This document shows positions 9,319-49,313 of a stretch of 64,000 nt of DNA, piece after piece (position 1 is the stretch's first letter; each line of letters begins with the position of its first letter). Made by a program: the position numbers and the translations under genes. Below the pieces are notes generated by a model that saw only the letters and a list, made by a program, of their open reading frames with translations, searched no databases and was not told the DNA's origin. Location of the stretch: the NCBI GenBank assembly GCA_965205505.1, contig CBDBHB010000008.1, forward strand, positions 960,001 through 1,024,000, in the 5' to 3' direction. The stretch comes from Acidobacteriota bacterium. GTDB lineage: Bacteria > Acidobacteriota > UBA890 > WLXD01.

Positions 9319-11153
9319 CTTCCTTCGAGATCCTCTGTTACCAGGGTGACGTCGTCGCTGTTGCCGGTCATTTCCCAGCGAATGAGTGACATCGGTATGT
9401 TGCCGGCCGACAGGAACTCATCGACGAAATCACGAAGCACGAATTCGTCACCGAGCTTCTGCGCCCGTTCTCTGAACAGTTTCATGAAATAAGCCTTGCC
9501 GGTAACAACGTTGCTATGAAAGCCACCCGGGTTACGCAGGTTGGACTGCATTTCAAACCAGACCATACCTTCATCTTCTTGTGACCAGCCGCGCGGCATG
9601 ATCTCGGCACACAGACGCCTCGCCTCGGCCAGGTTGATCTCGTTGGCGTGCATTTTCATGTCCGGTATCGCGAGGCTCATATGCGAGGCATTCATCAAGT
9701 ATTCCATTTCCCTGCCCTTGCGCGGCCGATCGTCGAGTACGCCAGCCTGCATCAACAACTCCTCGAGTGCTACGGCCCAACCCTCGGTGCGCATCGAGTC
9801 CATGTTGTAGCGGCGCCCGGCGCTGCGGATCGGGCTCCTGGTCAGGCGCTCCTGTCTTTGAAAATCGAGCATGTGCCCAATGAACTCGTGGGTTTCGCCG
9901 GGCAGTATCTCGCGCTGGCGGACCTTGGTGTCGATACTCGTGTTTTCGGGCAGGAACCGGTCACTGGAATCGTCACCCTCTCGGGCGAGACGCTCATCGA
10001 GCTCAGCGAGGGTCTCGAAGCCCGTGTAGTCCGCTGGGTTCACCCAATCGTCGATGGTCATGATCTCTTCGTCGCGCAAGAAATCGACGACATGATTGAG
10101 CGCGTGGTACAGGCTGGTCTCGAATTCCTTTTCGTTCGAGGCTACCTGCAGGGGCGGCAGGTTGCGATTTCGGTGTTCTTCGAGCTTCAGGAACGTGATG
10201 ATGCGATCGTATTCTCTCTGGATAATCGCGTTGTTTTCTTCCCAGCCCCACGGAGACAACTGCACGTTGCGCATCCACCAGCTGTAGTTTTCCTTGCCGA
10301 TCCCGGCCGCGGCGGTCATCTCGTGCTTGGTCGCTTCCAGCCATTCGGCATAGTCACGTACCGCCTTCCCGGCGCCGAGCGCATCGGCCGCCAGGTCCGG
10401 ATGATGTTCCTCGAGCTGCGCGGCAATTCGGACATAGGTCTCGGCTTCGCGCGCAGAGTTCCGAACCGCGAGCTCGGCGAGATCAGCGGCCGCTTCGGTA
10501 AGGTTGGTCCTCGCCTGCACGTAGATTCCGGGGATAGCCCTCAGCGCCGCCCGGTATCGTGCCTTTTCGTCCTCCGAGAAAGGGGGTCGCAGGGAAAAGA
10601 GCGCAGACCTGAGGCTCGCGGCGTTCATTGACGCCCCCGCGTCTCCCCCTCTGATCGAATAGAAACCGGGGTCACGTGCCCAAGGCTTGAGCACCCGGTG
10701 ATGGAACTCCAGGGCGTTCATTTCGGCACGAACCAAGTGATAATCGACTCTTTGCCAGACGGGCCAATCACCCGTTTCCATCGCAGCCAGGCGCTCTTGA
10801 AACTGCTTCAGGCCACGGTATTGCTCTCTAATTGCGGCAGCGCTGTAGTCGGGTACGCCGTTGTTGTTGTTGGTTGATTCCTGAAATCCACGAAACTCAT
10901 CGAACAAACCCGCAAGATCGCCATAGTTGCTGCTGGTGGTGATTCTCCCGGGAATCTGCTTGCGGGGGAGGGCAAGGAGCGACGACGAGGCGATGCTGGA
11001 GTCATCGCGGGGGAGGAGCGGCGCCGCCAGTCGTCCGTAATTCCCACTTGCCCGTAGGGTTGTGCCGCCAACCAGATCCATCACACTTTCACCACGGCCT
11101 GCTAGCAATAGCATCACGGAACAAGTCGCACAAACAACGTACCGAGTTGACAT
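9315..11153 (-). CDS. DUF885-like exported protein with an element-derived N-terminal insert
   Basis: AGGAG RBS at start; VDYHLVRAEMN, PWARDPGFY, REILPGETH..GH, EGWA, F+DEFL..G.IP.SLIRWE. About 52 N-terminal codons derive from the repeat element. Confidence 0.82.
   Translation of the reverse strand: MSTRYVVCATCSVMLLLAGRGESVMDLVGGTTLRASGNYGRLAAPLLPRDDSSIASSSLLALPRKQIPGRITTSSNYGDLAGLFDEFRGFQESTNNNNGVPDYSAAAIREQYRGLKQFQERLAAMETGDWPVWQRVDYHLVRAEMNALEFHHRVLKPWARDPGFYSIRGGDAGASMNAASLRSALFSLRPPFSEDEKARYRAALRAIPGIYVQARTNLTEAAADLAELAVRNSAREAETYVRIAAQLEEHHPDLAADALGAGKAVRDYAEWLEATKHEMTAAAGIGKENYSWWMRNVQLSPWGWEENNAIIQREYDRIITFLKLEEHRNRNLPPLQVASNEKEFETSLYHALNHVVDFLRDEEIMTIDDWVNPADYTGFETLAELDERLAREGDDSSDRFLPENTSIDTKVRQREILPGETHEFIGHMLDFQRQERLTRSPIRSAGRRYNMDSMRTEGWAVALEELLMQAGVLDDRPRKGREMEYLMNASHMSLAIPDMKMHANEINLAEARRLCAEIMPRGWSQEDEGMVWFEMQSNLRNPGGFHSNVVTGKAYFMKLFRERAQKLGDEFVLRDFVDEFLSAGNIPMSLIRWEMTGNSDDVTLVTEDLEGS
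10950..11105 (-). mobile_element. Partial type-A miniature element read in frame inside the DUF885-like gene
   Basis: CTAG 11102-11105; TIR 11072-11101 (28/30 match); CCCTACGGG linker; core GCAAGG..GAGGCGATG-N7-CATCG..GAGGA at about 10972-11028. Second TIR absent. Confidence 0.85.
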
Positions 11154-17223: not shown

Positions 17224-19194
17224 GTGGCACGCTTCGTACAGTTCCTCGCTATTTGTCTTTTGGTGAGCCTTGTTGCCGGGGCGCTGCCGGCAGCAACAAC
17301 ACCGTTACCACTACCGTCCCAAGACGAATGGCGCTACTTCGGTGGTGACAAGGGTTTCACACGCTACTCCCCGCACGATCAAATCCACCGCGACAACGTT
17401 AACGATTTGCGGATCGCCTGGCGTCGCCCGGCGGTGCGCGACGAACTTACAGAGGCGTTTCCTGATCTGTACCCCGATGCCTACCTGAGGGCGACGCCGA
17501 TCATGATCGACGGCGTGCTCTACACGCAGGATGCCCACGGTTTGGTAATCGCCCTCGATGGCGAGACCGGCGAGACCCTATGGGAACAGGAGCTCGTTGT
17601 GTCGACACTGGAAGAGGCCGACGCGTCGAGCACTCGTGGTGTTGATCACTGGAGCAGTGGCACCGGCGATGAGCGCATCCTCGCCATCCGAGGTGAGTAT
17701 CTCTACGCGCTCAATACCAGGACCGGCGAGCCTTACGCTGGTTTTGGCGATGACGGCAGGGTCAGCCTGCGGTTCCATGAGCGTCAGCCCTTGGCCCGTG
17801 CATTCAGCGACAGCACGGGTCCTCTCGTGGTGGGCAACGTCGTCGTGGTCACCGGGATCACGGGCGGAGCCGGCGATGGCGGTAACAAGAAGGAATCGGC
17901 GCCGGAGGATGTACGCGGCTTCGATGCTCAAACGGGCCGGTTGCTGTGGACGTTCCATCCGGTGCCGCGGGCGGGCGAGTTCGGCGCCGACACTTGGGGC
18001 GACGATTCTTGGAAGGTAGCAGGCGACCTCGGCGCCTGGGCTCTGATGACCGCGGACGAAGAGCTCGGTTATGTCTATATCGCGCTGTCAGCGCCGACGT
18101 CTGCTTGGTATGGCGGCTGGCGACCCGGTGACAATCTGTTCTCGAACACCTTGGTCGCTCTGGACGTGAAGACCGGCGAGCGCGTGTGGCACTTCCAGAT
18201 GATTCACCACGACCTCTGGGAATACGACAACATCGGTCCCGCGATACTCGGCGACATCACTGTCGACGGCAAGCGCATCAAGGCGGTGATGCAGCCGAAC
18301 AAGAATGCGTTTCTATTCGTCCTCGACCGTACCAACGGCGAGCCGGTGTGGCCGATCGAAGAGCGCCCGGTACCACGGTCGACGGTGCCCGGCGAGGAGT
18401 CCTCGCCGACGCAGCCGTTTCCGACCAAGCCGCCGCCCTTCGACCAACAGGGGATGACCGACAGCGACTTGATCGACTACACACCGGAGCTCAAGCAACG
18501 GGCGCGCGAGCTCGTCAAGGACTATCAACTCGGTCCGCTCTATACCCCACCGTCCGTGCCGAGCGATGAGCCGGGTGGAACGAAGGGGACGATCGTATAT
18601 CCGGGAGCGTGGGGCAACGGAAACTGGAACACCGGAGCCTTTGATCCCGAAACAGGAATCTACTACGCGGTCTCAAACACCTCGTATGGTCCGACAAACC
18701 GCGCTGTGGTCAAACAAACCGACCCGGAAGCGACGATGGAATATGCCTATGTCCCCAGCGCCCGACTCGAGCTCGACGGGCTCTTCTTCAACAAGGGGCC
18801 GTACGGCCGGATCACAGCCCTCGATCTCAACCGAGGCGAGCAGCTGTGGATGACCGCCAACGGCGATGGGCCACGCAACCATCCGTTGCTGAAGGATCTC
18901 AACCTACCGCCGCTGGGGAGTCCCAACCGTCCGGCTCCACTTGTCACCAAGACCCTGTTGTTCCTCGGCGAAGGCAGCAACGCCGTGAGCGGAACGCTGA
19001 ACGAGGACTGGGCATGGGGCAAGAAATTCCGTGCCTATGACAAGGCCACGGGTGATGTGATTTGGGAGATCGAGCTGCCGTCGGGGACCACCGCCGGCCC
19101 GATGACCTACATGCTCGACGGAAAACAGTACATCGTGGTGTCAATCGGAGCGCAGGATCACCCGGCGGAGTACGTCGCACTGGCGCTTCCATAG
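17224..19194 (+). CDS. PQQ-dependent (quinoprotein glucose dehydrogenase-like) enzyme
   Basis: W.YFGGD, ATPIMIDGVLY, GDNLFSNTLVALD, WHFQMIHHDLWEYD, PVWPIEERPVP, PMTYMLDGKQYI. Confidence 0.93.
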   Translation: MARFVQFLAICLLVSLVAGALPAATTPLPLPSQDEWRYFGGDKGFTRYSPHDQIHRDNVNDLRIAWRRPAVRDELTEAFPDLYPDAYLRATPIMIDGVLYTQDAHGLVIALDGETGETLWEQELVVSTLEEADASSTRGVDHWSSGTGDERILAIRGEYLYALNTRTGEPYAGFGDDGRVSLRFHERQPLARAFSDSTGPLVVGNVVVVTGITGGAGDGGNKKESAPEDVRGFDAQTGRLLWTFHPVPRAGEFGADTWGDDSWKVAGDLGAWALMTADEELGYVYIALSAPTSAWYGGWRPGDNLFSNTLVALDVKTGERVWHFQMIHHDLWEYDNIGPAILGDITVDGKRIKAVMQPNKNAFLFVLDRTNGEPVWPIEERPVPRSTVPGEESSPTQPFPTKPPPFDQQGMTDSDLIDYTPELKQRARELVKDYQLGPLYTPPSVPSDEPGGTKGTIVYPGAWGNGNWNTGAFDPETGIYYAVSNTSYGPTNRAVVKQTDPEATMEYAYVPSARLELDGLFFNKGPYGRITALDLNRGEQLWMTANGDGPRNHPLLKDLNLPPLGSPNRPAPLVTKTLLFLGEGSNAVSGTLNEDWAWGKKFRAYDKATGDVIWEIELPSGTTAGPMTYMLDGKQYIVVSIGAQDHPAEYVALALP

Positions 19195-19244
19195 CAGGGT
19201 GCGGAAGAGCTCTGGTGGATCTGGTTACGGCGTCGCGGGGCCAA
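19192..19244 (+). repeat. Type-B TIR plus the start of a type-A hairpin arm, forming the 5' end of the next ORF
   Basis: TAG (upstream stop) CAGGGTGCGGAAGAGCTCTGGTGGATCTGG (26/30 to type B), then TTACGGCG..GGGGCCA as in the 49035 copy. Confidence 0.8.
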
Positions 19245-26452: not shown

Positions 26453-27883
26453 TCAGCGGATGAGCCGTATTCCGGGGTCCGGCGGATAAGGGAACTCGAC
26501 GCCGTCTTCCGTCACTACCGCACCGTCATGGAAGGCGATGTAAATGTGCTTGCCCCTCCCCCACGCAGGTACTGGCATGTGGATCATGTACTCGAACGTG
26601 AAGGTGTGCAGCACCGGGATCGTCATCTCGCGTTCCCAGTCGGAGCCGAGCGGAGAAATCCTCGGAGCAACCAAGCCGCTTCGTCCCACGGCGTGCACAT
26701 CCAGATGCACCTGCGTCTTGTGAGGGTCGGCCGTCGAGTCGTATTGGTCGACCGGATTGTAGTGGTAGCCCGCCTCTTCGATCTTCCGGATCAGCAGGTC
26801 GAGGGTCTCCCCTGCCGTGCGCCCGGCAACGATGTTGTCGAGTAGCATCTGGCGGGTCTCGAGCGCAACTCGCCAGATCTCTTCGATCTCCGGCGGTGCT
26901 TCCGTCTCGCCCTCGCGCAGCAAGTAGGCGTTGCCCCCGAGGTCCGACGAGAAGATCCGGTTGCCGGCGCCGTGAAGAATCGTGAAGACGTCGCCCGGCT
27001 GCAGGACATAAGGCTGCGGATCTCCAGTGTGGAACTCGACGCCGTCAGGATCGCGGCGGAAAACGTTGCCCTCCAGGTCGCGGAGCTCGGTTACTCCCGG
27101 CACGACTTTGCCGAACTCGCGGTCGAGGTTGTCGGCAGCGATCAACCCGAACTGGCGATAAAGCTCGATCTCCTCGGCAACGCGACCCGCCAGGTAGTCG
27201 ATGATCAGGTGCTCGGCGGAGACCACGCGCCCGGCGTAGGTGTCGCCTAGCGCCTGCATCAAAAGGCCGTAGTCGGTGTGGGAGAGCCCGTCGGTCAGCG
27301 GGGCACGTTCCGACGCGGCCGAAAGCCCCAAATCCTCCGAGTAGTTGACGCCGATGCGGCGTGGGTCGCGTTCGGCCACGAATTCCCCCACACGGTCGAA
27401 GCGAAATTCCAGATGGTCGGTCTCATCGCCGCCGGGCTGCTCGGTGATCACACCGTCGACGAAGGTGGGCAGCTCCACGAGCGGCCGAGCGATGACGTCA
27501 TAGGCGTCTGCGTCGTCGACGTGTCCGGCGAACAGGGCCCGCTCTATTCGATCGGCTCCGCGGTCGGTGAAGACGAAGATCCCCGCGTCGCTCCCGAGCT
27601 CGAAGCTCAGCGGGTCGGGTGCCCACGGCCGCATGACATGAATCCACATGTCGATCTCGTTTTCCCGCATGATGCGCGGCAGAACCTGATCGAACTTGCT
27701 GTGGCGCACCTGGTTCTCAAGCGCCACCGAATCATCGGGCAGCACGGTGGAGGGATTCACCGTTTCGGGGTTCTGCGCCCTTGGCGGCGCAACCAGACCC
27801 ATCACACTTTCACCACGGCCTGCCAGCAGTGCCAAGAGAACGAAACAGCAAGCGGTGAGCTTCGAGAGTACGCCCATGGACAT
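26453..27883 (-). CDS. Exported M24-family protein with an element-derived segment in the signal peptide
   Basis: MRENEIDMWI, DPRRIGVN, DGLSHTD, RVVSAE, DVHAVG, TFEY; N-terminus contains LLAGRGESVMGLV. Confidence 0.87.
   Translation of the reverse strand: MSMGVLSKLTACCFVLLALLAGRGESVMGLVAPPRAQNPETVNPSTVLPDDSVALENQVRHSKFDQVLPRIMRENEIDMWIHVMRPWAPDPLSFELGSDAGIFVFTDRGADRIERALFAGHVDDADAYDVIARPLVELPTFVDGVITEQPGGDETDHLEFRFDRVGEFVAERDPRRIGVNYSEDLGLSAASERAPLTDGLSHTDYGLLMQALGDTYAGRVVSAEHLIIDYLAGRVAEEIELYRQFGLIAADNLDREFGKVVPGVTELRDLEGNVFRRDPDGVEFHTGDPQPYVLQPGDVFTILHGAGNRIFSSDLGGNAYLLREGETEAPPEIEEIWRVALETRQMLLDNIVAGRTAGETLDLLIRKIEEAGYHYNPVDQYDSTADPHKTQVHLDVHAVGRSGLVAPRISPLGSDWEREMTIPVLHTFTFEYMIHMPVPAWGRGKHIYIAFHDGAVVTEDGVEFPYPPDPGIRLIR
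27760..27826 (-). repeat. Type-A TIR and collapsed hairpin read in frame in the M24 gene
   Basis: CTGG (27823-27826) + TIR 27793-27822 (29/30), then GGTTGCGCC..GGCGCAGAACC and CCGAAACGG. Confidence 0.85.
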
Positions 27884-40166: not shown

Positions 40167-40347
40167 CTAGCAGGGTGCTGAAAAACTCTGGTGGGTCTGG
40201 CGCGTGGGTCTTGCTGGCGAGATCAAGGAAGAGCGACGATGGCGATGCCAGGGCGCATCGTCGAGGAGCTCTGACGCTGAGATCGTCGGCAACCCCCATG
40301 CGCCTTACAGGTTACAGACCCACCAGAGTTTTTCAGCACCCTGCTAT
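40167..40347. mobile_element. Complete type-B miniature inverted-repeat element
   Basis: Perfect 29-bp TIRs (40171-40199 and 40315-40343), flanked by CTAG and CTAT; one long internal hairpin; abuts the TAG stop of the DUF1501 gene. Confidence 0.9.
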
Positions 40348-49034: not shown

Positions 49035-49313
49035 CTAGCAGGCCGTGGTGAAAGTGTGGTGGGTCTGGTTACGGCGAGTTGGGGCCAGATGCAAGGCGGC
49101 CTGACACAGGCGATGCCCTAGCCATCGTCGAGGAAGGCCAACGCCGCAAATGGCCCCAAATCGCCGTAACCCTTCGGGCGACAGGGGGTTGCGCGCGTAT
49201 GCTGCGTCGTTCCTCGTCAACGATGCGGTACCCATCGCCTCCTCCTCTCTCCTTGCCTCCACTTCGCAACACCCTGTCGCCAGACCCACCACACTTTCAC
49301 CACGGCCTACTAG
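49035..49313. mobile_element. Complete type-A miniature inverted-repeat element (279 bp including both CTAG)
   Basis: 30-bp TIRs (29/30 complementary), CTAG on both sides, two long internal hairpins joined by CCCTTCGGG. Confidence 0.92.

Follow-up and report, generated by a model that had tools for sequence, protein, structure and literature searches.

The exported M24-like gene of the window (the whole 64,000-nucleotide stretch of Acidobacteriota DNA analysed here) carries a short in-frame insert directly behind the hydrophobic core of its signal peptide, and the insert matches one end of a MITE that is abundant in the source genome. We consider it, at a probability of roughly three in four, to be a tolerated, deletion-trimmed scar of a non-autonomous IS1182/IS5-like MITE in a cleavable leader. 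The features on which this reading is built are collected in Table 1.

Table 1. Features of the window and of the genomes compared with it
Feature	Position or locus	Strand	Details and basis
Exported M24-like (Xaa-Pro peptidase fold) host gene	26453..27883	-	476 aa from first ATG; PF00557
Host-derived n- and h-region, Sec/SPI-type signal peptide	27827..27883	-	Aligns with orthologue leaders
Target-site flank CTGG (usual form CTAG), giving the Leu-Ala junction	27823..27826	-	Sequence
30-bp TIR of the MITE, subfamily-1 variant with internal ATG	27793..27822	-	29/30 to reference TIR; only stop-free inward frame
Subterminal MITE sequence, subfamily 1, ending in 9-bp microhomology GGGCGCAGA (27780-27772)	27772..27792	-	BLAST to subfamily consensus, orthologue DNA; putative deletion junction
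DUF885 host gene, 612 aa	9315..11153	-	PF05960
Second remnant: CTAG, TIR and second arm of subfamily 1, about 141 bp	10963..11105	-	In frame after h-region; replaces host linker
Full-length reference MITE, CTAG + 271 bp + CTAG, intergenic, three-way hairpin	49035..49313	+	TIRs, fold
Nested subfamily-1 copies	G000 C8:237039, C8:899539, C9:1325706, C9:1907520, C9:2856857, C9:2939002
Leader remnants	M24; DUF885; GWxTD/TPR protein C9:390322; lipoprotein n-region C9:1487693
G011 IS loci with MITE-like end	L045, L051, L055, L059
G007 IS630 loci at MITE/IS5 ends	L067, L072, L075, L078, L080, L082, L084, L085

The host gene and its insert

The match of the M24-like protein to its Pfam family (E=3.7e-4) falls below the cut-off of the profile search. 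The public gene call starts at 27877 and gives a protein of 474 aa, present in exactly this form in the public collection and found on six public contigs; DNA of the gene stretch was found in several studies, and at most 5-6% of its words were contained in any RNA run. The exported M24-like family is much expanded, with 34 matches in the source genome (G000) and as many as 34 in relatives. Its sequences come mostly from marine metagenomes, as far as their habitats are named, and one homologue carries the source label Acidobacteriota. Orthologues from eight relatives are 84-94% identical, and the 94-95% identity to the closest relative (G004) is typical of this genome pair, for which the median over 180 genes is 93.7%. 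For the mature part, comparison with five orthologues gives a dN/dS of 0.115-0.19 (0.115 against G004), while the DUF885 gene, at near-saturated dS, has 0.11-0.17. Neither host gene is thus a decaying pseudogene, an outcome the preliminary description had allowed for, and on these substitution rates the M24-like gene is under purifying selection with no decay. Branch-specific amino-acid changes number 11 on the G000 branch versus 6 on the G004 branch: a slight relaxation is possible, the counts being too few to call.

The signal peptide was assigned by eye. The protein runs from a typical leader through LAGRGESVMGLVAPP to RAQNPET, and the orthologue leaders end in x-x-A ahead of Gln at the predicted cleavage point, the three residues being L-R-A, L-W-A, V-G-A or similar. 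None of the orthologues has a lipobox Cys at the cleavage site; Cys is found only early in the h-region and is missing there in some. No lipobox has therefore been replaced, contrary to the earlier suggestion that the LAGR of the insert stands in place of a LAGC-like box and might alter lipidation.

Of the 30 bases of the reference TIR (49039-49068), the TIR within the insert (27822-27793, minus strand) has 29 and the TIR copy in the DUF885 gene (11101-11072) 28; the two in-gene copies agree with each other at 29 of 30. As first reported, both face inward, in the same orientation and frame, after an h-region. The two host genes are unrelated, again as reported, but the peptides, which had been called the same, differ at one of 13 residues (LLAGRGESVMGLV in the M24-like protein, LLAGRGESVMDLV at 11105), with G in the former and D in the latter. 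Beyond its TIR the M24-like remnant continues for 21 bp into subfamily-1 subterminal sequence, as far as 27772, and BLAST aligns 55 bp to the subfamily-1 consensus at 91%.

Compared with all eight orthologues the gene has gained a net 39 bp, and the insert is missing from each of 25 homologous proteins. The two M24 paralogues in the window (ORFs 7912 and 45420) lack the segment, as had been stated; since they are only 34-36% identical, the true orthologues are the proper control, and these lack it also. In an independent study (run X4, record 22) one contig covers 27419-28100, insert included, and differs at one of the 682 bases without any gap; in a further run the contig of a relative skips the insert, which is thus no assembly artefact. 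It appears fixed in the source species and is confined to its own lineage, being absent in all other species examined.

The 9-bp word in which the remnant ends occurs also in empty alleles just before the mature start, namely in the G004, G007 and G012 orthologues and at locus L231. By chance 5.8% of random 21-nt host stretches share a 9-mer with the element, and the microhomology counts only because its position is exactly the junction. At the other end of the insert the preliminary description had seen a synonymous change of CTAG to CTGG. The CTGG stands at 27826-27823 as described; its origin from CTAG by a synonymous change is presumptive, as CTAG was found at none of 26 readable orthologue junctions (from 30 loci). 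Nor is the loss of CTAG special, as had been implied: 231 of the 327 TIRs in the genome are flanked by CTAG and 96 by other sequence, CTGG in seven cases, and the A of the flank is replaced by G in 15 of 289 A-type TIRs. Deviating flanks accompany three of six in-gene TIRs and 93 of the 321 others (Fisher p = 0.36).

The MITE family and its partner insertion sequences

The TIR repeat does not arise by chance, since 327 hits were obtained in G000 at up to 7 mismatches and none in three shuffled controls. The hits comprise 78 pairs and 171 solo ends. There are 54 full-length copies, with about 271 bp between the TIRs, in three subfamilies; the size classes span 260-279 bp, 24 of the 78 pairs lying outside them, and 45 pairs are flanked by CTAG at both ends. 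Targeting of CTAG is demonstrated at sites other than the M24-like one: comparison of G004 with G000 gives clean empty sites with a single CTAG, and at three full-length sites a gain of 275 bp, which is compatible with a 4-bp duplication, a 2-bp duplication or none. Folding gives a branched hairpin for the element, with a strong z of -13.8, and an Rfam search with its full length returned only a chance hit to MIR1437 (E = 0.21). All three subfamilies have the same two-arm hairpin layout, with arms that are changed yet complementary and a CTTCG/CGTAG linker (window 49035-49313 and 40167-40347). Matches occur in 20 of 25 relatives. Most copies are intergenic, and 74 of the 327 TIRs directly abut the stop codon of a gene. 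The family thus consists of short, non-coding, TIR-bounded elements in many dispersed copies, with filled/empty polymorphism and with ends in common with autonomous ISs, as expected of a MITE.

Each of the six full-length subfamily-1 copies lies within another repeat, always at the same position; the empty form of this repeat is found in G004, and the copies accordingly spread as its cargo. Within the window, a subfamily-B remnant (19192-19243) begins at the TAG stop codon of a PQQ dehydrogenase gene and overlaps an open frame upstream of the next gene. Also in the window, a gene with three RidA/YjgF domains (1282-2652) lies between two inward-facing solo TIRs, identical over 31 bp and with CTAG on both sides. 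It has other neighbours in G004 and G003, where the copies have different flanks, and either the gene may have been moved by a MITE-ended composite or the two TIRs may be remnants that lie there by chance; among 31 close solo TIR pairs, six face inward.

Read inward from CTAG, the second frame starts with TAG and the third contains TGA, leaving only LAGRGESVVGL open. Every surviving inward copy must therefore read LAGRGESV, and the shared frame of the M24-like and DUF885 inserts, which had been taken as a sign of a recurring route into leaders, is uninformative. According to the consensus, a whole copy adds 275 bp, with a frameshift and a stop in the M24-like frame, and would break the gene.

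The MITE has no transposase, unlike the IS1182-like and IS5 elements of related Acidobacteriota (L045 and L036), with which it shares CTAG flanks and terminal bases. The former is a 1505-bp IS of G011 with a DUF772 transposase, in which CTAG is followed at one end (A type) by 17 identical TIR bases. Its best NCBIfam hit is IS1182 (NF033551), but with a score of 158.6 bits, below the cut-off of 270, it is called no more than IS1182-like. Subfamily-B ends are a near match to the IS5 element L036, the transposase of which scores 275 bits with NF033581 (cut-off 140). Neither partner transposase was found by tblastn in G000, an assembly 96% complete. IS630 as the mobiliser, after the RUP/Correia type, is unsupported by a search of 24 IS630 loci in 13 genomes: the TIR matches there are MITE or IS5 ends adjoining the IS630 boundary at CTAG, not ends of IS630 itself. 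IS630 insertions at the CTAG that borders MITE or IS5 ends recur in G007, and through them a MITE can look IS630-derived.

In-gene remnants and the leader skew

Positions of in-gene TIRs were tested on a gene model of our own (5463 genes, 4607 used), which sets starts too far downstream for most exported proteins. Of 74 cases of a TIR in an open frame, 32 were set aside for want of an in-frame start upstream. From the remaining 42, eight, in seven genes, were kept by hand on the basis of orthologues, ribosome-binding sites (RBS) and starts, the other 34 being judged upstream of the real start or unclear. Six intact in-gene remnants resulted: four of them lie in leaders, and of the other two one is internal and one belongs to a C-terminal tail. 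A seventh remnant truncates its gene; six intact cases against 327 TIRs make in-gene copies rare. Their position is non-random when set against the CTAG distribution, the comparison proposed at the outset: four of six lie in leaders (p = 6e-5), versus 128 of 2859 coding CTAG sites (4.5%) in the first 40 codons of signal-peptide-like genes, and two of four when both index cases are removed (p = 0.011), an enrichment that depends on hand curation and on starts and leaders assigned by heuristics, with empty orthologues for only two of the leader cases.

In three unrelated genes, M24, DUF885 and GWxTD, the inward TIR peptide directly follows the h-region. The GWxTD case is without an empty-allele control, as the G004 orthologue lacks the N-terminal part and a search with the N-terminus gave its own cluster only. 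The lipoprotein case is read in the outward frame, in the other orientation, and has a different peptide; paralogues of about 60% identity were the only ones available.

The DUF885 remnant has replaced a variable host linker, and the G001 orthologue has an in-frame CTA-G at the point of insertion. It is present in conspecific strains. Between the most distant pair of four strain proteins, 3 of 54 insert-region residues have changed versus 4 of 537 mature residues (p = 0.019). The first 13 residues of the insert are unchanged in all four, with too few changes to separate neutrality from constraint. A protein search with insert residues 14-66 found only the species' own protein, one hit among 164 candidates.

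No leader case was present among 164 TIRs of G004, a partial sample covering 2.28 of about 5.7 Mb. A pattern search for A-type TIRs after hydrophobic codons gave ten non-self matches in 25 relatives, none in a signal peptide, with a pattern that is insensitive, having caught one of the three inward leader cases of G000. TIR hits at 8-9 mismatches and nhmmer remnants lacking a TIR yielded no further convincing in-gene case.

The remaining in-gene copies are of other kinds. At G000:C7:376089-376252 (L090) a recent two-ended deletion derivative of 168 bp occupies, in frame, the central part of a gene for a PF13557 outer-membrane transporter; this gene is 168 bp longer than its empty G004 orthologue and has a dN/dS of 0.34, and a single-sequence fold of the protein with its internal insert has a pLDDT of 31. 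A 33-bp mini-element at G000:C7:674800 (L092), with CTAG lost from both flanks, lengthens a beta-lactamase/cupin gene by 30 bp and the C-terminal tail of its product by 10 residues. In G004 (locus L128, 9323) an outward solo TIR is found inside a short open frame with no G000 homologue, possibly a broken gene.

Origin of the insert, rival explanations and known systems

An element of about 275 bp would first have entered a CTAG-like sequence where the h-region ends, Leu-Ala/Gly codons being able to spell CTA-G there, and a deletion between the 9-bp word in the element and the host's downstream copy would have left the 39 bp in frame. Since the whole element brings a frameshift and a stop, and the remnant ends in the shared word, insertion followed by deletion is the simplest history; the overlap at the junction is observed, the order of events we infer. 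The family has many internal-deletion and solo-end derivatives (171 of 327 TIRs are solo). A one-step illegitimate recombination is a possible alternative, given that no orthologue junction offers a CTAG target.

The 13 added residues would lie in the c-region of a cleavable signal peptide. Signal peptidase cleavage sites obey the (-3,-1) rule and, with Pro now at the old -3 position (P-R-A), the old cleavage site is probably unused; cleavage would move upstream to L-L-A or G-R-G, leaving a short extra tail at the N-terminus of an exported protein. The gene itself stays under purifying selection. Remnants would accumulate in leaders through the purging of inserts from other parts of genes, not through any job done by the peptide. 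The leader skew is expected equally under tolerance and under function. What separates the two favours tolerance: inserts restricted to one species, differing orientations and lengths, and the faster change of the DUF885 insert.

The preliminary description had favoured domestication of the element, and the small residues offered to signal peptidase by the peptide start L-A-G-R-G, together with the three unrelated genes that have it right after the h-region and the significant enrichment in leaders (with or without the index cases), could be read as selection for a usable cleavage site or better export, with repeated recruitment. We find this quite improbable. The frame is forced and the enrichment is predicted equally by tolerance; the M24-like insert is absent in all relatives examined and no parallel case appeared in the 2.28 Mb of G004 or among the ten pattern matches, while the fourth leader case is oriented the other way and encodes another peptide, and drift is seen in the DUF885 insert. 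That the insert impairs export, the gene being in an early decay not yet visible in dN/dS, is unlikely: Pro at the old -3 position, the 11 versus 6 branch-specific changes and the redundancy that 34 related sequences in G000 make possible would fit, but the frame is open, dN/dS against G004 is as low as 0.115, the identity to G004 is typical of the genome pair, and the same protein recurs on six public contigs and the gene DNA in several studies.

The TIR might also provide an internal start, its GTG-ATG lying a few bases after GGTGA, which we take to be SD-like, so that part or all of the product would be a signal-less cytoplasmic protein. The ATG variant is found in 19 of 289 A-type TIRs, both window copies among them, our own gene model chose the TIR ATG in both genes, and a simple RBS rule finds no RBS at the native M24 start. 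Against this, the variant is an inherited state of subfamily 1, the native M24 start and h-region are intact and alignable with the orthologues, the native DUF885 start has an RBS, and the model is biased downstream for most exported proteins; we regard an internal start as very improbable.

A tolerated scar of this kind has precedents. In-frame MITE fusions are not unusual, RPEs being the extreme case (PMC10969869), and a MITE insert in gmk has been read as neutral and tolerated (PMC2229807). Like the present MITE, the RPEs of Rickettsia are structured non-autonomous repeats found in frame in unrelated conserved genes, with the same peptide in each (PMC10969869, PMC2229807). By these accounts they carry an ORF and often insert in frame, whereas the MITE causes a frameshift when whole and only deletion remnants survive, its in-gene copies being rare and leader-skewed unlike RPEs. 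The M24-like insertion is likewise in frame, in a gene under purifying selection with orthologues that lack it, and by analogy the remnant is RPE-like, a known kind of event. It is unlike a domesticated element in being without conservation across species, and the DUF885 insert region changes faster than the mature protein. In the YPAL/RU-2 fusion YPO1552 of Yersinia, too, the MITE forms part of a predicted signal peptide (PMC2229807); there it gives hydrophobic residues to a putative new gene, while in the M24-like case it follows a pre-existing h-region in an old conserved gene.

Residues from intragenic GTAG/CGTC REPs are commoner at protein N-termini than at C-termini, for which the authors argue neutrality and removal of inactivated genes (PMC3733652). 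Whereas the MITE is TIR-bounded, about 275 bp long and linked to DDE transposases, REPs are short palindromes, and the transposases proposed for their GTAG class are RAYTs; the available part of the REP account does not single out signal peptides. Our literature search found no paper on a signal-peptide-specific repeat skew, though the list of intragenic REPs in Supplement 3 of PMC3733652 may bear on the point.

Two DUF772-transposase IS ends, read in the CTA-G frame, give L-A-G-C-G in an open frame (L037, in G011) and L-A-G-C-stop (L036, in G005), a perfect lipobox by coincidence; a pattern search of 26 genomes found no IS end reading L-A-G-C after hydrophobic codons and no in-gene use. The A-type end L-A-G-R-G is one transition from the lipobox L-A-G-C. 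As the ends read Leu-Ala-Gly in one open frame and land where h-regions end CTA-G, CTAG-targeting IS5/IS1182-type ends, if selected, might act as a repeatable means of rewiring export signals, moving cleavage sites, turning secreted proteins into lipoproteins or giving a signal-less isoform through the TIR ATG. This idea has no positive support here and we hold it to be highly unlikely. The remnant would matter much more if cleavage, lipidation or localisation were changed, of which the sequences compared gave no sign. If the main reading is true, the M24-like gene would show, cleanly and on a small scale, how proteins gain residues from selfish repeats, through insertion, rescue by microhomology deletion and survival mainly in cleaved leaders. 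It is a warning to annotators, since the remnant brings with it a spurious start codon and makes unrelated proteins seem to share a motif. The element being abundant across the whole order, the leader skew is testable at scale.
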